Below, one piece after another: positions 2,871 through 56,626 of a stretch of 64,000 bases of DNA. The DNA comes from Candidatus Kaiserbacteria bacterium (GTDB lineage: Bacteria; Patescibacteriota; Minisyncoccia; Phycocordibacterales; UBA2100). Where the stretch lies: the NCBI GenBank assembly GCA_016867375.1, contig VGJQ01000001.1:21394-85393 (forward strand), in the 5' to 3' direction. A program made the position numbers and the translations under genes. The notes under the pieces were generated by a model, which was not told the origin of the DNA, made no database searches, and saw only the letters and a list, made by a program, of their open reading frames with translations. Position 1 is the first letter of the stretch. The number at the start of each line of letters is the position of its first letter.

Positions 2871-3623
2871 ATGCAATGGCTCGTGGTCGCAAATTGGAAG
2901 ATGAACCCGGGGACGGCCGCCGCGGCACTCTCGCTTTTCGAGGCAACGAAGAAAGCATCCGAAAAAGCGCGTAATGCGACCATCATCATCGCCCCTCCGG
3001 CGATTTTCTTGCCTCGCTTGCGCACGTCGTATCGCGGAAAAAAGGTCCAATTCGGCATCCAGCACGGACATTTCGAGCACAGCGGCTCCTATACCGGCGA
3101 GATATCGCTCACGCAGGCGAAAGATGCGGGTGCCTCATGGGCAATCATCGGCCACGCCGAACGCCGCGCAGTGGGAGAGACCGACGAAGATGTCTGTAAA
3201 CAGGTCGTCAGAGCACTTACCCTAAAAATGACGCCGATTCTCTGTATCGGTGAAAAAGTGCGCAGTGCCTCGGGCGATCACCTGCACTTTATAAAAGAGC
3301 AACTCAGGATAGGACTTGCCGACGTGTCTCCCGCAAAGCTCGGAAAAATAGTGATCGCGTACGAGCCAGTATGGGCGATCGGCGCCGCGGAAGCCATGCA
3401 GCCGCGCGACATGCACGAAATGGCGATCTTTATACGCAAAACGATCGTCGATACCCATGGTAAGCCCGGCCTTTCTGTAAAAATACTTTACGGTGGCTCA
3501 ATCGACGAGACCAATGCAGGAGCGATGCTTCGGGAAGGGGATGTGCAGGGCCTTCTCGTCGGGCGCGCCTCGGCGGATGCTGCACAATTTGCACACCTTG
3601 TGAGCGCAATTGAAAAAGCATAG
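2871..3623 (+). CDS. tpiA: Triosephosphate isomerase
   Basis: N-terminal VVANWKMN motif, the catalytic AIIGHAERR and VIAYEPVWAIG motifs, and YGGS. The start was chosen at the MQWLVVANWKMN methionine rather than the upstream ATG. Confidence 0.9.
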   Translation: MQWLVVANWKMNPGTAAAALSLFEATKKASEKARNATIIIAPPAIFLPRLRTSYRGKKVQFGIQHGHFEHSGSYTGEISLTQAKDAGASWAIIGHAERRAVGETDEDVCKQVVRALTLKMTPILCIGEKVRSASGDHLHFIKEQLRIGLADVSPAKLGKIVIAYEPVWAIGAAEAMQPRDMHEMAIFIRKTIVDTHGKPGLSVKILYGGSIDETNAGAMLREGDVQGLLVGRASADAAQFAHLVSAIEKA

Positions 3624-3685
3624 TTCCCGTTAGAAATCAGACACCACAAACATAATGCGTATGAACATTACCTATCGTTTCTAAC

Positions 3686-5510: not shown

Positions 5511-5550
5511 CACTTGTTTATAGTTCGCGGCCGCGAACTATAAACAAGTG
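5511..5550. promoter_or_regulatory. 40-bp perfect palindrome cacttgtttatagttcgcggccgcgaactataaacaagtg (copy 1)
   Basis: Perfect dyad symmetry. Lies 36 bp downstream of the PaaX-like gene stop and 27 nt upstream of a TGgTATAAT extended -10 preceding the HIT gene start. A near-identical copy lies upstream of the PaaX-like gene. Confidence 0.6.
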
Positions 5551-13840: not shown

Positions 13841-16800
13841 GTGAACGCCGAATCCCGATACTTACACGGTCTCAACGAACGACAAAAAGAGGCGGTACTC
13901 CACACCGAGGGGCCGCTTCTCATCATTGCAGGAGCGGGGGCGGGCAAGACTAAGACCATCACACACCGCATCGCACACATGATCGAGCAGGGGGTACCAG
14001 CGCGACAAATCCTCGCCGTGACGTTTACCAATAAGGCGGCGGGGGAGATGCGTGAACGCGTCAAGAAATTGATCCCTGAGGGAAGGGGCGTCCCTTTGGT
14101 CGCGACATTTCATAGCCTGGGTGTGCGGCTTTTGCGCGAATTCCATGAGGAAGCGGGGCTTGAGCGCGGTTTTAGTATCTGGGATCGCGACGATAGTATG
14201 CGCGTCATCAAGCGTGCGCTCGAAAAGCTCAATATCGAGACGATCCCCGGCCGCAATGTACTGTCGGCGATTTCCCGCGCAAAAGGGGATGGCATCTCGC
14301 GCGAGGAGTACGATCGCGACGCCAATTCATTCCACGAGCGCACGGTCGCCCAAGTATGGCAGATCTACGACAAGGCGCTTCACGAAGAGGGTGCCTTGGA
14401 TTTCGACGACCTCCTGGGTCGTACACTTATGCTTCTACAGAACTCGCCGCGCGTGCTTGAACTTTTGAGGGGTCGCTGGCACTACATCACGATCGACGAA
14501 TATCAAGACACCAACGCCGCGCAATACGAGATTGCACGCTTGCTTTCTGGCGAGCGCCGCAATCTCTGCGTCGTCGGCGATATCGACCAGTGTGTTGCGG
14601 AAGGAACACTCATTACTATGGCAGATGGAGAAAAAAAACCTATCGAACGTGTCAAAAAGGGTGATTTAGTGCTATCAAACTATGGCAGCGGCGCCATGCG
14701 CCCATCACACGTCCATCGGATACACAGGCGATCAACAAGGGAAACAGTGACTATCACCACAAAATCCGGCCGTAGACTGACGACCACATCGGATCATGTA
14801 CATTTTGCCGGATATCGGCTCGGTATCGTGCCACAGATGTATTTCACGTACCTTATGTATAAGCACGGCGTCGGGTACCGACTTGGAGTATCACAAGTCT
14901 ATGCCAACGGCCAACGAACTCCAATGGTCGGATTCCAACAACGCTGCAACCATGAACACGGGGATGCTGTATGGATCATTGGAACTCATACCGCCTCGAA
15001 CGATGCGCGCGTCATGGAGTACACACTCTCTCTCCAATACCAAATACCGACACTACCATTCGTGGCGCGCAAAGGAGTGAGTGTCGGCGGATATGTACAC
15101 GACCAAAGGGTTATAGATGCACTATTCGCCACAATCGATACAGAAAAGGGAGCCTTTCGGCTACTTCGAGACCGTGGCCTGTCGCGCGATTACCCCCACC
15201 ACCGAGCACAGTCTCGAGACAGTAATCGGCGTAATGTAACGATCACGCTCTGTGGCGATCAGCGCGGTAAAACCCCTATGCATCGTATATCAATGACCGG
15301 AAATGACGACGAAGGGAAACATCTTTTGCAATCTATCGGACTTTCCGTGCGTTCTGTAAAGAATGGATCATCGAGCTGGCGTTTCGAGAGTGCACACGCC
15401 GACTACGCAGCCTTGCGTGAACGTGTCATGCACATCTCTACTGTGTTTCCCAGACTTGCCATAATTGAGAATGCACGACTTGGTGGCAATAAGGCAAATC
15501 CAAAAGATGGAAATTCGCTCGGTTTCCTACCAGCCGCATCGGTGCTTCCTGGCATGGCCCTGTTCGACGAGGTGGGAGGATACGACATTATAACTGGTGT
15601 AGAAAAAGCTACTCAAACCAGGCGCGTTTACGACATCGACATCGAACACACACACAATTTCATCGCAAATGGCATTATCACGCACAATTCGATATATACT
15701 TGGCGCGGGGCCGACATCGAACACTTGATGAACTTCGAGACTCAGTTCCCGGGTACCAAAGTCATCCTCCTCGAACAAAATTACCGTTCTACGCGCACCA
15801 TCCTCACCGCTGCCAATGCGGTGATTGCTAAAAACAAACGCCGCAAAGAGAAAAATCTTTTTACCGACAACGACACAGGCGAACCGATCCATACATACGC
15901 CGCGCGCAATGAAATGGACGAATCGTGGTTTGTCGCACAGACAGCGGTCGAGATGATACAGGGGGGCATCAGGCCCGACGAAATCGCAATCCTTTACCGG
16001 GAGAACTTCCAGTCGCGTGCACTCGAAGAGGCACTCCTCGCATTCTCAGTGCCCTATCGCGTGCTCGGCACCAAATTCTTCGAACGCAAAGAAGTGAAAG
16101 ACACGCTCTCATATCTGCGCGCTGCGCTCAATCCGAAAAGCAAAGTCGATCTCGTGCGCGTGGCCGCTGTACCACCGCGCGGTATCGGCAAAGTGACGCT
16201 CGATAAAATGCTTGCCCCGTTAGAAAAACCAGATACTAACGGCTTCACGTCAATATGGGACCAGTTTTTTCTAACGGGGCGAGTGGGGGATGAGTCTTCC
16301 ATCACAGGAGCAACACTCATCAAGGTGACAAAATTCCGTGAACAGATCGCGGCTATACGCAAAGCAATCGAAACGTTACCCGCATCTGAAGCGGTGCGAT
16401 ACACCGTCGAAGTGTCCGGTATGGAAAAGATGTATCAGGAAGACAAGAAAGAGGGGATAGAGCGTCTCGAAAACATCCACGAGCTCGTCAATCTCGCCGT
16501 GCGCTACGATGAGGAGCTCCCCCCAGTTGGTATCGAAAAGCTCCTCGAAGAAGCCGCCCTCCAGTCCGACCAGGATGAGCTTGAGGAGCCCCAGGCAGCA
16601 GTCTCCCTTATGACCATTCATGCGTCCAAAGGTCTCGAATTCGACGCGGTGTTTGTGACCGGCCTCGAGCAAGGCCTCTTTCCGTCACTACGCGAAGATA
16701 CGCGCGACCCCGAAGAAGAGCGCCGACTCTTCTACGTCGCTGTCACACGCGCGCGCAAGCGGCTCTTCCTCAGTCATGCCGGCGAACGCATGAAATACGG

Positions 16801-16918
16801 CTCGCGCGAGCGCGCCCTGCGATCAGAATTCATCCACGACATCGACCAGCGCCTCATCGTCCACTCCTCACGCGACGGTGGCGTAGAAGGGCAATCGGGA
16901 GAGGGAATTATTTGGTAA
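13841..16918 (+). CDS. uvrD: UvrD/PcrA-family ATP-dependent DNA helicase interrupted by an intein
   Basis: Motif I AGAGAGKTKTITHRIAH. Helicase motif VVGDIDQ / SIYTWRGA is split by a 366-aa insertion. The C-terminal motifs (TIHASKGLEFDAVFV, RLFYVAVTRARKRL) are intact. The extein alone is about 659 aa. Confidence 0.9.
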   Translation: MNAESRYLHGLNERQKEAVLHTEGPLLIIAGAGAGKTKTITHRIAHMIEQGVPARQILAVTFTNKAAGEMRERVKKLIPEGRGVPLVATFHSLGVRLLREFHEEAGLERGFSIWDRDDSMRVIKRALEKLNIETIPGRNVLSAISRAKGDGISREEYDRDANSFHERTVAQVWQIYDKALHEEGALDFDDLLGRTLMLLQNSPRVLELLRGRWHYITIDEYQDTNAAQYEIARLLSGERRNLCVVGDIDQCVAEGTLITMADGEKKPIERVKKGDLVLSNYGSGAMRPSHVHRIHRRSTRETVTITTKSGRRLTTTSDHVHFAGYRLGIVPQMYFTYLMYKHGVGYRLGVSQVYANGQRTPMVGFQQRCNHEHGDAVWIIGTHTASNDARVMEYTLSLQYQIPTLPFVARKGVSVGGYVHDQRVIDALFATIDTEKGAFRLLRDRGLSRDYPHHRAQSRDSNRRNVTITLCGDQRGKTPMHRISMTGNDDEGKHLLQSIGLSVRSVKNGSSSWRFESAHADYAALRERVMHISTVFPRLAIIENARLGGNKANPKDGNSLGFLPAASVLPGMALFDEVGGYDIITGVEKATQTRRVYDIDIEHTHNFIANGIITHNSIYTWRGADIEHLMNFETQFPGTKVILLEQNYRSTRTILTAANAVIAKNKRRKEKNLFTDNDTGEPIHTYAARNEMDESWFVAQTAVEMIQGGIRPDEIAILYRENFQSRALEEALLAFSVPYRVLGTKFFERKEVKDTLSYLRAALNPKSKVDLVRVAAVPPRGIGKVTLDKMLAPLEKPDTNGFTSIWDQFFLTGRVGDESSITGATLIKVTKFREQIAAIRKAIETLPASEAVRYTVEVSGMEKMYQEDKKEGIERLENIHELVNLAVRYDEELPPVGIEKLLEEAALQSDQDELEEPQAAVSLMTIHASKGLEFDAVFVTGLEQGLFPSLREDTRDPEEERRLFYVAVTRARKRLFLSHAGERMKYGSRERALRSEFIHDIDQRLIVHSSRDGGVEGQSGEGIIW
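14591..15688 (+). mobile_element. Intein (366 aa) in the UvrD helicase motif (VGDxDQ|S)
   Basis: Begins CVAEGTLITMADG (block A, Cys1). TTTSDHVHF (block B, TxxH). Ends IANGIITHN followed by Ser+1. The host motif is restored to VGDIDQSIYTWRGA on in-silico excision. No clear LAGLIDADG motif is seen in the central region. Confidence 0.8.
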
Positions 16919-16956
16919 GGGTTCGTCCACGAATAACGTACCCGTTATGTGTGAAC
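16916..16956 (+). repeat. REP-like TAAGGGYTCGTCC-hairpin element (copy 1; its TAA is the uvrD stop codon)
   Basis: taagggttcgtccacgaataacgtacccgttatgtgtgaac. This is a member of a 5-copy family. Confidence 0.7.
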
Positions 16957-17019
16957 TATGGCACATCGGCATAGTATTTTTGGAAACCAGGTTCCTTAAT
17001 GATAGTATGCCGGTACTTT

Positions 17020-17766
17020 ATGGCTTCACGCAAAGTACCGCTTGTACCCAATGAATATTTCCATGTCTACAATAGGGGTGTAGACGGTCGCTCTATTATT
17101 CAAGATAAAGAAGATCTTGGACGCCTGTTAAACAGTATGCGCGTTTTTAACCGCGTCGAACCGGTGGGAAGCCTTTATGCGTTTTCATTCCACGACCCTC
17201 AGTTAAGGAACCAGGTTCCTAAGTTGGAAGACAGTAAGCACCTTGTGTCTATCGTGTCTTTCAACATTCTCCCGAATCACATCCATTTCGTCCTGAAGCC
17301 ACTCGTTGAGAAAGGTGGGAGTGAGTATGTAAAACGTGTTATCGGAGGATTCACATTGTTCTTCAATGAAAAGTACGGGCGAACTGGGCCTCTTTTTCAA
17401 AGTCCGTTTAAAAGTACGCATATCCGCAGCACTCACCACTTGTTACACATGCAAACGTATGTCAATTTAAATGATTATATTCACGGACGAGGGCAATTTC
17501 CTGAATGGGTGGGTGCCAGCAGTTGGGGTATGTTCACCACTAAAACAATGAACGATATCTGCGACCCAATTGAGGTCGAAGCTATTCTTTCCCATTTTCC
17601 CAATCGTAGTGAATATCGAAAACGGGCCCTCGAAACTGCCGATGCAATATGGCAAGAGCGTATGGCAGACGAAATCGAGCAAACAACGCAGGGACGCGAT
17701 ATTGCGGACCAAGCCGCTCTGGAGAAGAATATTCTTCCCCAACTTAGGAACCAGGTTCCTAAGTGA
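17020..17766 (+). CDS. IS200-like / REP-associated tyrosine transposase (COG1943-type Y1 transposase)
   Basis: YFHVYNRG N-terminal motif, the HUH motif NHIHFVL, and a C-terminal Y-containing helix (YVNLNDYIHG). It is flanked by, and internally contains, the 21-nt palindrome ttaaggaaccaggttcctaag at about 16984, 17203 and 17743. Confidence 0.7.
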   Translation: MASRKVPLVPNEYFHVYNRGVDGRSIIQDKEDLGRLLNSMRVFNRVEPVGSLYAFSFHDPQLRNQVPKLEDSKHLVSIVSFNILPNHIHFVLKPLVEKGGSEYVKRVIGGFTLFFNEKYGRTGPLFQSPFKSTHIRSTHHLLHMQTYVNLNDYIHGRGQFPEWVGASSWGMFTTKTMNDICDPIEVEAILSHFPNRSEYRKRALETADAIWQERMADEIEQTTQGRDIADQAALEKNILPQLRNQVPK

Positions 17767-17771
17767 TTACT

Positions 17772-18572
17772 ATGGGTATTCGTCTTGGTCAGCATTTTTT
17801 GAAAAATCAGTATTTTGCGCAAATGCTCGCGCAGGCTGCTCACATTACTCCGGATGACACCGTCGTCGAGGTCGGCCCCGGCAAGGGAGCACTCACCAAA
17901 GAGCTCCTCAAACATTCGCGCAGGGTCCTCGCCATCGAAAAAGACCCTGCACTGATCGAAAAACTGCGCGAAACATTTCCCGATGAAGTTGCAGGCGGCG
18001 CACTCACTATTATCAGTGGGGACATTCGCAATTTTAAACCAGAAACCTGTCGAGGTCTGACCTCGACAGGGTATGTGGTTGCGGCGAATATTCCTTACTA
18101 CATCACCGGCGAGATCATCCGCCAATTTTTGGAGTGCGACACACCTCCACGCACCATGGCGCTTTTGATCCAAAAAGAAGTGGCGCAGCGCATCGTCGCA
18201 CACGACAAAAAAGAAAGCATCCTTTCTATCTCGGTCAAAGCGTATGGACGCCCGCGCATCGTGGCAAAGGTAGGGAAGGGGTGTTTTAACCCACCACCAT
18301 CGGTAGATTCTGCCATCATCGCCATCGAAGATATCTCAAAAGACTTTTTCTCGGGATTTGATGAGCAATCTTTTTTCAAAGTGGTCCGTGCCGGCTTCGC
18401 CTCAAAACGCAAGTATCTCGGCAATAATTTGGCCGTCATATTTGAAAAGGAGAGGGTGTCGCAGGTATTTGCAGCACTCGACATCGCGGAAAAGACCCGC
18501 GCCGAAGATGTGCCGCTCCAAAAATGGAAACTTTTGACATTGCAATTATTCGAACGAGGCTTTCAAAATTGA
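17772..18572 (+). CDS. rsmA: 16S rRNA (adenine1518/1519-N6)-dimethyltransferase
   Basis: GQHFL N-terminal motif, VVEVGPGKGALT SAM-binding motif, and the NIPYYIT motif. Confidence 0.9.
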   Translation: MGIRLGQHFLKNQYFAQMLAQAAHITPDDTVVEVGPGKGALTKELLKHSRRVLAIEKDPALIEKLRETFPDEVAGGALTIISGDIRNFKPETCRGLTSTGYVVAANIPYYITGEIIRQFLECDTPPRTMALLIQKEVAQRIVAHDKKESILSISVKAYGRPRIVAKVGKGCFNPPPSVDSAIIAIEDISKDFFSGFDEQSFFKVVRAGFASKRKYLGNNLAVIFEKERVSQVFAALDIAEKTRAEDVPLQKWKLLTLQLFERGFQN

Positions 18573-19115: not shown

Positions 19116-20030
19116 ATGAAGTATCCGTACTTTTTGGGTGTCGTCGGCATTATCGCATTACTCGCCATAGGGGGAGCAATCGTTGACACGCGCGTGCCCA
19201 TCGGCGCTGGCGAGAGTACGTATAGCGGGGGTACACCCATTTATTTTGACACTTCCTCCTATGCACCCTATCAGCCGTCGACGCAGAATCAGACCCCTGA
19301 TGACAGCACTCCGGCAATCCCCACCATGCGTACGTATGACTCGTTTTCATATACACCAGACCCAAGCAAGGGCTCTGCGACAAACATCCCGAGCACGATC
19401 ATCCATTCTGATTCAAGCTTTGATTTCAATGCATTCATGCAGAAGCTGTCTTCATCGGGTACATCGGCTTCACAGATCCCTGTAGGCACATCGATTAATA
19501 CTCCTATTATCCAAGAAGAATCGTATCCGTTCGTCCCCCCCGAGCTTTTTTCATCGCCTGACGCACCACCTGCGCGCTCCGCACTCCAACAAGAGCTCTA
19601 TACGTATGGCAACACAGCAGGCTCTTTCCTAAAGACATACGAACAGATGCATGCCAACGACGTCGCGGTGATGCAGCGCTTTTTTGACACCCGGACAAGC
19701 GCACCAAATACGACCGCGCTGCGCCAAGTCGCCAACGACTTTAAGGCGGTGGGCCTCAATATGAAGACCGTGCAGCAGGTCCCCGCACCAGCCGCGTCGA
19801 TCCATAAAAATCTCGCTGAGTCGTACATCGTCGTCGCAGATAAGATGATCGCCATGCTCTCTACCGCAAACGACGAAGACTTCATCCAGGCAGTCCTCAC
19901 ATACAATGCGGCCGTTGAAGAAAACCTCAAACACCTCGTCGCGCTCATCGACACTTTTGCCAACAACGGCGTGAAATTTGGACCGAGTGAATCCGGGAGT
20001 GTCTTTATGTTTTCAAGCGTCGGCTTGTAA
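19116..20030 (+). CDS. Hypothetical N-terminally membrane-anchored protein (304 aa from MKYPYF)
   Basis: One N-terminal transmembrane helix followed by a Ser/Thr/Pro-rich linker and a helical domain. The stop codon TAA is part of a REP-like element. The ORF-track start at 18789 gives an Arg/Cys/His-rich, non-protein-like extension. Confidence 0.55.
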   Translation: MKYPYFLGVVGIIALLAIGGAIVDTRVPIGAGESTYSGGTPIYFDTSSYAPYQPSTQNQTPDDSTPAIPTMRTYDSFSYTPDPSKGSATNIPSTIIHSDSSFDFNAFMQKLSSSGTSASQIPVGTSINTPIIQEESYPFVPPELFSSPDAPPARSALQQELYTYGNTAGSFLKTYEQMHANDVAVMQRFFDTRTSAPNTTALRQVANDFKAVGLNMKTVQQVPAPAASIHKNLAESYIVVADKMIAMLSTANDEDFIQAVLTYNAAVEENLKHLVALIDTFANNGVKFGPSESGSVFMFSSVGL

Positions 20031-20116
20031 GGGCTCGTCCACACATAACGTACCCGTTATGTGTGGACTACACTTATGGCCCCGTTCATTTCGAGTTGTT
20101 AATGAACGGGATCTAA
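20028..20116 (+). repeat. REP-like element, full-length two-hairpin form (copy 2)
   Basis: taagggctcgtccacacataacgtacccgttatgtgtggac followed by tacacttatggccccgttcatttcgagttgttaatgaacgggatctaa. The same two-hairpin arrangement is at 36769-36862. Confidence 0.7.
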
Positions 20117-35548: not shown

Positions 35549-35745
35549 TACGCGTTAGTCATCGGAAAAGTGAAAGGCAGCGCGATTCCTTTCAGGAATC
35601 GCGCCACCCCTACAACCCTACATGGCACAAGTCTGACTTGTGCCATTACCACTTTTAATCACAGACTCCGCTGTTGAGCCACTTGTGTGGCATGCCATGG
35701 AGCGCGTCGTGGATGAAAGTGCAGTCGTCGATGTAGTATGGCTAA

Positions 35746-35784
35746 AAAGGCGTCGCCTTTATCGGATAAAGGCGACGCCTTTTA
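35746..35784. terminator. Palindromic Rho-independent terminator downstream of rnpA
   Basis: aaaaggcgtcgcctttatcggataaaggcgacgcctttt, a 14-bp stem flanked by A and T runs. Confidence 0.7.
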
Positions 35785-36768: not shown

Positions 36769-36862
36769 TAAGGGCTCGTCCACAAATAACGTACTCGTTA
36801 TTTGTGGCAGCCACTTATGGACCCGTTCATTTTATGTTGAACTTTTTATGAACGGGTCCTAA
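36769..36862 (+). repeat. REP-like element, full-length two-hairpin form (copy 4), inside the oriC region
   Basis: taagggctcgtccacaaataacgtactcgttatttgtggc ... ggacccgttcattttatgttgaactttttatgaacgggtcctaa. Confidence 0.65.
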
Positions 36863-43143: not shown

Positions 43144-43302
43144 ATAACTAGACCCCGATACCATGTATGCATGACTTCCATGGAGAGTGGAATTACACGA
43201 TCGGGCCGCACCGAAGGATACAATTATTTACGGAAGAGCCCTAATTAGTTAGTCAAAAGCCAGGCTTTCTACAGTTGTGCAAGCCTGGCTTGCACAACAG
43301 GC

Positions 43303-56585: not shown

Positions 56586-56626
56586 TAAGGGCTCGTCCAC
56601 AAATCACGTACTCGTTATTTGTGGAC
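56586..56626 (+). repeat. REP-like TAAGGGCTCGTCC-hairpin element (copy 5)
   Basis: taagggctcgtccacaaatcacgtactcgttatttgtggac. Confidence 0.65.

Follow-up and report, generated by a model that had tools for sequence, protein, structure and literature searches.

The window analyzed here, 64,000 nucleotides of a contig from Candidatus Kaiserbacteria, a member of the candidate phyla radiation (CPR), carries at 17020-17766 on its forward strand a gene for a 248-aa protein that resembles the repetitive extragenic palindrome (REP)-associated tyrosine transposases (RAYTs), and the gene is accompanied by copies of a short palindrome. An upstream copy, one or two in-frame copies within the coding sequence, and a copy at or near the stop codon make up a layout that is conserved across a large CPR clade. 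With a probability of roughly 55%, we read this unit as a 'REPtron', that is, a RAYT-type HUH/Y1 gene together with its own cognate palindrome, on which the enzyme would act in the form of a hairpin.

Of the window copies, the terminal one forms a perfect palindrome with 11-bp arms, ACTTAGGAACC-A-GGTTCCTAAGT, at 17742-17764 (+ strand; inverted repeat I8). Its 21-mer, CTTAGGAACCAGGTTCCTAAG (17743-17763; core form CTTAGGAACC-A-GGTTCCTAAG), constitutes the last seven codons of the gene, reading LRNQVPK, and the stop codon TGA (17764-17766) begins at the final base of the palindrome. The internal copy, TTAAGGAACCAGGTTCCTAAG, located at 17203-17223 (+ strand), encodes the same heptapeptide as residues 62-68. 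Both in-frame 21-mers, as well as the position of the first between the YHVYNRG and HUH motifs, had been put forward in a preliminary description made from the sequence alone, and both points hold in the open reading frame (ORF). The two 21-mers differ at 2 nt, both silent, and the chance expectation for such matches is 0. The sole difference is the first codon, TTA for CTT (both Leu), which breaks two stem pairs; because of this codon, the internal hairpin is weak, folding as single-stranded DNA with -4.0 kcal/mol (z -0.3) and seven perfect inner pairs left, compared with -8.3 kcal/mol (z -3.9) for the terminal copy. Residues 51-70, LRNQVPK included, have predicted local distance difference test (pLDDT) values of 60-68 in the structure model, and this low-confidence segment is predicted to be a flexible surface loop. 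The upstream copy, TTGGAAACCAGGTTCCTTAA (16980-16999, + strand), is decayed, retaining a 13-nt core with one mismatch and a left arm of the type found in the closest homologue, L001, and it lies 21 nt before the likely start codon, ATG 17020. The preliminary description had placed the same 21-mer, or a near-identical variant, just upstream of the gene; a related element is indeed there, but it is degenerate, is not the same 21-mer as the other two, and coincides with a predicted promoter. With respect to the start codon, the public annotation (248 aa, P0001) uses ATG 17020, and the ATG at 16999 given by the ORF lister falls within the upstream element.

Three copies, one upstream, one internal and in frame, and one terminal or downstream, are also found in each of the three closest homologues (58, 43, and 40% identity), but the palindrome is a different one in each case: CTTGGAAACC-A-GGTTTCCAAG in L001, translated LGNQVSK; ACTTGGACG-CGAAA-CGTCCAAGT in L002, translated LGRETSK; and ACTGAGAG-GTCGGGA-CTCTCAGT in L003, whose internal copy is in the opposite orientation and occupies a second site, beyond the Tyr motif. 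When one genome per species was scanned, at least 556 relatives were recovered, the best 80 of which, nearly all labelled as Patescibacteria/CPR lineages, were analyzed together with the window and five database homologues, making up 86 loci. It should be noted that the 80 genome loci are the best-scoring matches rather than a random sample, that the counts take no account of phylogeny, that palindromes were detected with fixed thresholds, and that the organism labels of some metagenome-assembled genomes are unreliable. A locus-specific repeated perfect palindrome was found in 75 of the 86 loci; when nine 'negative' loci of the 80-locus genome set were re-inspected, all nine turned out to have a palindrome, single or imperfect, where one would be expected, eight of them upstream of the gene. 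What had been described as an unusual selfish arrangement is thus the standard architecture in this clade, and in-frame REPs in RAYT genes are known from elsewhere (PMC6006769).

The positions of the copies are similarly regular. The upstream copy usually lies ~35-60 nt before the ATG and the downstream copy 0-17 nt past the stop codon or overlapping the last codons, and the internal copies occupy one or both of two sites, site 1 at aa ~57-67, before HUH, and site 2 at aa ~145-160, after the Tyr helix. Among the 74 of the 75 loci that were classified, the layouts include upstream, site 1, and downstream copies in 24, upstream, site 2, and downstream copies in 16, all four in nine, and no internal copy in eight, such that at least one internal copy is present in 66/74; a palindrome occurs at the position homologous to site 1 of the window in ~50 related loci. 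The palindromes are 21-23 nt long and of a 'double-foot' design, with a conserved foot, a variable stem, and a short loop. The consensus (C)ACTTGG...CCAAGT(G) recurs in every position class, with AACTTGG typical of internal and CACTTGG of external copies; the foot is mostly ACTTGG or ACTTAG (ACTTAGG in the window), and GTAG...CTAC double feet are confined to a minority (L030, L031, L051, and L060). The orientation of the upstream copy relative to the downstream copy is random, being the same in 28 loci and inverted in 29. In one locus, L079 (gene at 2998-3684), composite palindromes of 46-52 nt resembling REPIN doublets are present in frame at site 1 (aa ~59) and 12 nt past the stop codon, together with a single copy at site 2 (aa ~158).

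Most internal copies lie in codon phase 0, 39/44 at site 1 and 26/28 at site 2, and the foot-to-foot length is divisible by 3 in 64/72. They are read as L-G/R-x-x-x-S/P/A/T-K, in which the fixed residues are the translated foot. Beyond these residues the peptides are highly variable, with 45 distinct ones among 50 site-1 copies and 32 among 34 site-2 copies, whereas Watson-Crick pairing is kept at ~96-98% of stem positions in each copy class. Because the peptides vary while the palindromes stay, these comparisons show that it is the DNA palindrome that is conserved and not the peptide. The opposite view, that LRNQVPK is a functional motif whose palindromy is accidental, draws on nothing beyond the repeat of LRNQVPK within this one protein, and is virtually untenable: the check proposed in the preliminary description, that homologues might share the peptide without the palindrome, came out the other way, since they keep a palindrome at that spot with other sequences and other peptides (LGNQVSK, LGRETSK), and with the zero chance expectation given above, a conserved peptide or coincidence is refuted.

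Copies within a locus resemble each other far more than copies of different loci, with mean differences of 0.75/21 nt and 8.9/21 nt, respectively, and 161 of the 257 within-locus pairs are identical when orientation is ignored. Seven orthologous pairs have flanking genes in common, five of them on both sides of the unit and the other two on one side, indicating that the gene stayed put during speciation. In the syntenic orthologues L030/L031 (GTAGGTGTC vs GTAGACGTC) and L065/L070 (TTGGGAGCT vs TTAGGAGCT), compensated differences are found in all copies, and in L008/L009 a loop-closing change is likewise present in all copies. The window differs from L001 by two compensated base pairs, both of which occur in the internal and the terminal window copies. 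Same-genome paralogues keep different palindromes, for example, L010/L014, which differ by one compensated pair, and L044/L058, which are only 6 kb apart. These comparisons show that all copies of a locus change in concert under vertical inheritance of the gene. The idea of a recent, clean insertion of seven codons into the window gene is not borne out either; instead, the site has been inherited as a hot spot, and its evolution is concerted with that of the flanking copies.

The identity of the enzyme has been approached from sequence and predicted structure. The protein, a predicted single-stranded DNA nuclease-ligase, is 100% identical to the public protein FJY93_00190, which is annotated as hypothetical. 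In a seven-sequence alignment, H87-I-H89 (HUH codons at 17278-17286, + strand) and Y147 (catalytic Tyr codon at 17458-17460) are invariant, and in a 70-sequence alignment both His (H87, H89) remain invariant, with Y147 conserved to at least 90%. The AlphaFold (AF2) model of the protein has a pLDDT of 88.7, and its best match in the PDB, obtained with Foldseek, is 4er8_A, the Escherichia coli TnpA_REP with a REP hairpin (E 1.3e-5; TM-score on target 0.63), followed by the TnpA proteins of ISDra2 and IS608 at E 7e-3 or worse. The conserved residues together with the best fold match support a RAYT-like HUH/Y1 enzyme, in agreement with the transposase call of the preliminary description. Similarity to E. 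coli TnpA_REP in sequence is marginal (profile E 0.41). A profile search returned 4,760 cluster representatives (50% identity) at E <=1e-30, and most relatives have a precomputed match to PF01797. More distant Y1-family members (P0048, P0053, P0061, P0070, and others) are 350-430 aa long and fused to an SH3-like domain (PF08239), and the relative L005 (285 aa, no SH3 fusion) has no flanking palindromes; such members may be domesticated variants with another role.

A gene of this type with hairpins on both sides calls to mind an ordinary insertion sequence (IS) of the IS200/IS605 type, in which the left- and right-end hairpins happen to be alike and one spare copy resides inside. The minimal hairpin-gene-hairpin unit of ~800 bp would agree with this, as would the history of the site: the neighbours are uvrD/pcrA (13841-16918) on one side and rsmA (ATG 17772) on the other, the uvrD-rsmA gap in a related Kaiserbacteria genome is only 9 nt, and the GC content drops to ~0.45 at the RAYT unit. 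Given the empty uvrD-rsmA site in this relative, the window unit is an accessory insertion in a variable hot spot; the relatives compared, whose RsmA is ~72% identical, are too divergent to define the exact insertion boundaries. Despite this local picture, orthologues lie in conserved synteny across species, most contigs have one copy (one in the window), and same-genome paralogues differ from each other. Moreover, the random orientation of the end copies is not the same-strand arrangement of such elements, the fold is nearer to TnpA_REP than to IS200/IS608 TnpA, and the protein has ~215-250 aa, as against ~125-152 aa in the matched IS200-group TnpA chains. The insertion-sequence reading therefore fits the data poorly and is hardly credible, and the analogy to the left and right ends of a Y1 transposase, drawn in the preliminary description, is weak for the same reasons of orientation and synteny. 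As has been reported for the family, RAYT-like genes stay in residence over moderate evolutionary distances but have a patchy distribution over long ones.

Other uvrD-rsmA gaps in Kaiserbacteria hold RelB/YafQ and ParE/YafQ-like toxin-antitoxin pairs in one genome and a TrmB regulator with a toxin-antitoxin pair in another (gap records L088 3243-5000, L090 2480-5000, and L089 4992-5000). In the window, the heptamer ACTATGG is found at both edges of the unit, at 16955-16961 and 17769-17775, the second containing the rsmA start codon; the two copies sit in a 16-nt stretch that is 75% identical between the edges, and the pair could be a junction duplication from the insertion or due to chance.

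The upstream copy differs from the others in its association with promoter-like elements. In the window, its left foot supplies a -35-like hexamer, TTGGAA (16980-16985, + strand), 17 nt before a -10-like hexamer, TAGTAT (17003-17008, + strand), of the extended type with TG at 17000-17001, and this -10 ends 11 nt before ATG 17020, which would give a leader of ~5 nt. The window promoter is weak, matching at 8/12 positions, and a generic promoter scan gave no call. A composite imperfect hairpin (16967-17012, + strand; inverted repeat I10) encloses the upstream palindrome and the promoter elements, its outer arms CGGCATAGTAT and ATAGTATGCCG pairing 16967-16977 with 17002-17012; the DNA of 16960-17020 folds with -9.3 kcal/mol (z -3.2). 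Across loci, a -10-like hexamer directly follows the upstream palindrome on its 3' side in 56%, compared with a background of 13%, and no comparable enrichment was found for other copy classes or sides. Measured from TTGGnn/TTAGnn of the left foot, the spacer between -35 and -10 has a mode of 17 nt (18/42 measurable loci), and the distance from the end of the -10 to the ATG is 6 nt in 22/42 and 7 nt in 6/42; a TG at -15/-14 is present in 25/42, supplied in the commonest geometry by the foot ...AAGTG. The upstream copy thus provides the -35, the spacer, and the TG of a predicted sigma-70-type promoter placed for a leaderless mRNA, in which case, if the promoter reading holds, the upstream palindrome is not transcribed. 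Two further promoter candidates were rejected: an antisense promoter at the terminal copy, where an antisense -10-like hexamer occurs in 25% of loci against the 13% background with no clear spacing, and promoters at internal or dispersed copies, where an adjacent -10-like hexamer occurs in 0-14%, not above background.

The overlap of the upstream copy with -35 and spacer is also what would be expected if the palindromes were duplex operators for a dimeric regulator, either the Y1 protein or a host factor, with the upstream copy as the main operator and the others as auxiliary sites for looping, comparable to lac O2 in lacZ. The perfect two-fold symmetry, the conserved outer feet, and the irrelevance of loop orientation are all in line with this, and the identity of copies within a locus is what selection by a shared sequence-specific binder would produce. 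In contrast, characterized Y1/HUH proteins bind single-stranded hairpins, and the best structural match, 4er8, is a RAYT with a REP hairpin; the model had no better match than a RAYT, in a comparison that included no search aimed at a separate DNA-binding domain such as a helix-turn-helix. Insertions of the palindrome in ychF and ligA, described below, are left unexplained as well, and on balance an operator role in place of hairpin recognition is improbable.

At the RNA level, the palindromes may be considered as mRNA stem-loops, acting, for example, in translation stalling near the stop codon or in protection of the 3' end. The internal and terminal copies do lie in the transcribed region, and the terminal copy overlaps the stop codon or is located 0-17 nt past it; in E. 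coli, a reduction in translation has been reported for REPs that lie within ~15 nt of a stop codon. Stem mismatches, nevertheless, show no sense-strand G.U bias (G.T 16 vs A.C 11), loops flip freely between copies, the upstream copy precedes the predicted transcript start, and Rfam gave no match at E up to 1, which counts against a known structured RNA. RNA elements accordingly fit the data poorly and are very improbable. Intrinsic terminators were rejected as a candidate, with no T-tract after the terminal copies and zero terminator calls in the window region.

Beyond the RAYT units themselves, the flanks of relatives contain 22 further copies in 368 kb. In the YchF of another genome, an exact 7-residue insertion (NQLGGFTSKLP) is evident by comparison with PDB 1jal and 8kie, and in the LigA of another genome, the palindrome lies inside a 10-residue insertion just before the KxDG motif, by comparison with 2owo; both insertions read in the L-G...S/P-K frame. 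With in-frame insertions of 7-10 codons in the ychF and ligA genes of other genomes, these alignments show that the palindrome can move, and REP-like spread is demonstrated in the relatives only, not in the window. In the ligA locus (L035, 1234-1275), a second small hairpin, GGGAGCCGGACTCCC, directly follows the palindrome and reuses its stem, and both together form the 10-aa insertion. A general CPR promoter motif was considered and rejected, as CTTRG...CYAAG palindromes outside the units are rare (14 in 416 kb, 10-11 of them of the own-locus type). A scan of metagenome contigs for AGGAACCAGGTTCCTAAG matched two unrelated contigs in a scanned set that lacks the source contig.

It is this mobility that lends weight to the view that the copies are pure passengers, selfish mini-REPs that hop locally and find in the RAYT loops and the L-G...S-K frame their only harmless sites, leaving the internal copies without a role; their conservation would then be only apparent, arising from recurrent insertion into hot spots or from gene conversion between nearby repeats. 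In-frame insertion into unrelated essential genes in the same reading frame speaks for passengers, as do the tandem double copies at site 1 in L059 and L082, the variable occupancy of sites 1 and 2 among close relatives, and the decay of the internal window copy via silent changes. Against them stand the density of internal copies, ~1 per 0.6 kb of RAYT coding sequence compared with ~1 per 17 kb in the flanks, and their quality, as internal copies are at least as perfect as external ones (mismatched pairs 1.8-2.6% vs 2.6-3.8%) and follow the compensated changes in syntenic orthologues. In addition, in genes without a site-1 palindrome, the loop is of much the same length and retains LG..K remnants instead of showing a clean 7-codon gap, and loci without any internal copy number eight, compared with ~14 expected if the sites were independent, in a count that ignores phylogeny. 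Passengers are the less probable account, yet for the internal copies they remain a serious alternative.

In the REPtron reading, the enzyme would bind the hairpin formed on single-stranded DNA and would nick and rejoin it at the foot, as E. coli TnpA_REP does with REPs. This nick-rejoin activity, or short-tract conversion between neighbouring copies, would keep nearby copies identical and could occasionally seed new ones, and binding at the promoter copy may result in negative autoregulation. Location in surface loops and a single benign frame, L-G/R-x-x-x-S/P/A/T-K, probably explain why the internal copies are tolerated, and they probably persist as additional sites within the DNA of the enzyme itself, where a deletion would destroy the gene. 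Several observations weigh against this reading. The window protein scores below the family cut-offs of both Pfam Y1_Tnp (PF01797; 16.7 bits vs 23) and NCBIfam REP_Tyr_transpos (NF047646; 27.6 bits vs 80). The single-stranded 5' GT[AG]G guide of canonical REPs is absent in the window and the conserved bases are inside the stem, and perfect palindromes with random loop orientation fit a dimeric double-stranded DNA binder as well as they fit hairpin recognition. Moreover, the 13-nt core has no further occurrence in the 64-kb window with up to two mismatches allowed, and the palindrome system shows partial decay there, with no perfect copy other than the terminal one and with decaying internal and upstream copies, which are accordingly not strongly maintained here.

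A stronger version of the REPtron holds that it homogenises itself, with RAYT cut-and-rejoin overwriting all nearby copies, including those in its own coding sequence and promoter, and that the internal copies are required parts of a circuit for autoregulation and copy maintenance rather than passengers. We consider this version doubtful and put it forward tentatively, for what it would entail. If true, a change in the variable stem would reach all nearby sites at once, retuning promoter, enzyme loop, and target together, and this would constitute a built-in diversification of enzyme-site pairs into non-cross-reacting lineages, such as same-genome paralogues might represent.

Among known systems, the closest in layout are the REPtrons of TnpA_REP subclass 2.4, in which in-frame REPs lie inside the tnpA_REP gene in a peripheral loop (Quentin, Siguier, Chandler and Fichant 2018, PMC6006769). 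In common with them, the CPR units combine an HUH/Y1 gene with REPs of its own on either side, these REPs are of the 'double-foot' kind with reverse-complement ends, and copies lie in frame in the gene. Compared by described features, the CPR units stand apart in their short (21-23 nt) perfect palindromes, ACTTGG/ACTTAG foot, and promoter fusion, and their insertion sites, one ahead of HUH (aa ~57-67) and one past the Tyr helix (aa ~145-160), do not correspond to the one given for subclass 2.4 (PMC6006769). The E. coli TnpA_REP with its REP/BIME elements (PDB 4er8; PMC3479197), an HUH/Y1 nuclease specific for single-strand hairpins whose cleavage and ligation activity is cited in PMC6006769, provides the best structural match and is likewise a single-copy, vertically inherited gene with flanking palindromes and a REP family of its own for each RAYT; its REPs differ in being imperfect hairpins with a single-stranded 5' GTAG guide and hundreds of extragenic copies, none of which has been reported inside the gene. 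The REPIN-RAYT systems (Bertels and Rainey 2011, PMC3116915) share a resident, vertically inherited RAYT, co-evolving short palindromes, and specific pairing of RAYT and repeat, but REPINs are inverted REP doublets forming large genomic populations, whereas each CPR element is one hairpin and very few copies occur at a distance from the gene.

IS608 and ISDra2, the TnpA proteins of which have the same HUH/Y1 fold and are encoded by hairpin-flanked genes, are multi-copy and mobile as whole elements, with imperfect same-strand hairpins and guides outside the stem, none of which has been seen in the CPR family. The Rickettsia palindromic elements (RPEs) are roughly 100-150 bp long and are not known to be linked to a RAYT. 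The CPR element, by comparison with REPs and RPEs, is 21 nt (7 codons) and resides mainly in the RAYT gene itself. The likeness to these elements lies in the in-frame palindromes in functional genes, including replication and repair genes (PMC3733652 and the RPE papers cited there), and REPs inside host ORFs including that for DNA ligase, REPs overlapping the ends of RAYT genes, and REP termini giving stop codons have all been described (Di Nocera 2013, PMC3733652).

The phenomenon is therefore known in kind, in-frame REPs in RAYT genes and in host ORFs having already been described (PMC6006769, PMC3733652). A literature search on RAYTs, tyrosine transposases, or palindromes in CPR, Patescibacteria, or Parcubacteria found no relevant report, and what appears to be new is the CPR clade and the generality of the layout within it, the two different fixed insertion sites occupied by short perfect palindromes with an ACTTGG foot, the explicit evidence of concerted, compensated change from the comparison of syntenic orthologues, and an upstream copy fused with a promoter positioned for leaderless mRNA. 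In the 2018 survey (PMC6006769), non-IS tnpA_Y1 genes were associated with large genomes, in contrast to which RAYT systems thrive here in some of the smallest bacterial genomes. For the study of RAYT function and of the co-evolution of RAYTs with their palindromes, the clade offers thousands of natural enzyme-site pairs; with a site as simple as a perfect palindrome of 21 nt, in which the foot is conserved and the stem varies, the recognition rules and the homogenising mechanism are testable by covariation and with short oligonucleotides. Furthermore, a REP-like element is tied here directly to a promoter placed for leaderless mRNA, and 7-codon palindromes are seen to enter essential genes (ychF, ligA) in CPR bacteria.

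Other repeats in the window are separate from the palindrome family of the RAYT unit. The second REP-like element noticed on the upstream side is real; TAAGGGyTCGTCCACnnATAACGTACCCGTTATGTGTG, at 16916-16956 (+ strand; fold -6.7 kcal/mol), abuts the unit and belongs to a second repeat family with four copies in the window, all on the + strand (16916-16956, 20028-20068, 36770-36807, and 56598-56623). Its consensus, TAAGGGCTCGTCCACAnATAACGTACyCGTTATnTGTGG, bears no sequence relationship to the RAYT palindrome, and no enzyme could be linked to it. In at least two copies, those following uvrD and the ORF ending at 20030, the leading TAA doubles as the stop codon for the preceding gene. The UvrD/PcrA helicase itself (13841-16918) is 1025 aa long, with matches to Hint and intein-splicing domains at about residues 250-620, and as related Kaiserbacteria UvrD orthologues have 651-652 aa, the window copy has an intein of ~374 aa.

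On the other side of the unit, rsmA contains a 25-nt perfect in-frame palindrome, CCTGTCGAGGTC-T-GACCTCGACAGG (18046-18070), which encodes ETCRGLTSTGY in a variable loop just before VVANxPYY; this loop is only 2 aa longer than in Bacillus subtilis KsgA, with no clear insertion. More generally, the window has 14 perfect hairpins with a stem of at least 9 bp, compared with ~1.2 in shuffles. Among them are a loop-less palindrome of 40 nt whose ends read CACTTG...CAAGTG (5511-5550) and a 39-nt palindrome (35745-35783), and several are 25-nt palindromes with a 1-nt T loop, at sites including 35622-35646 and 43274-43298.

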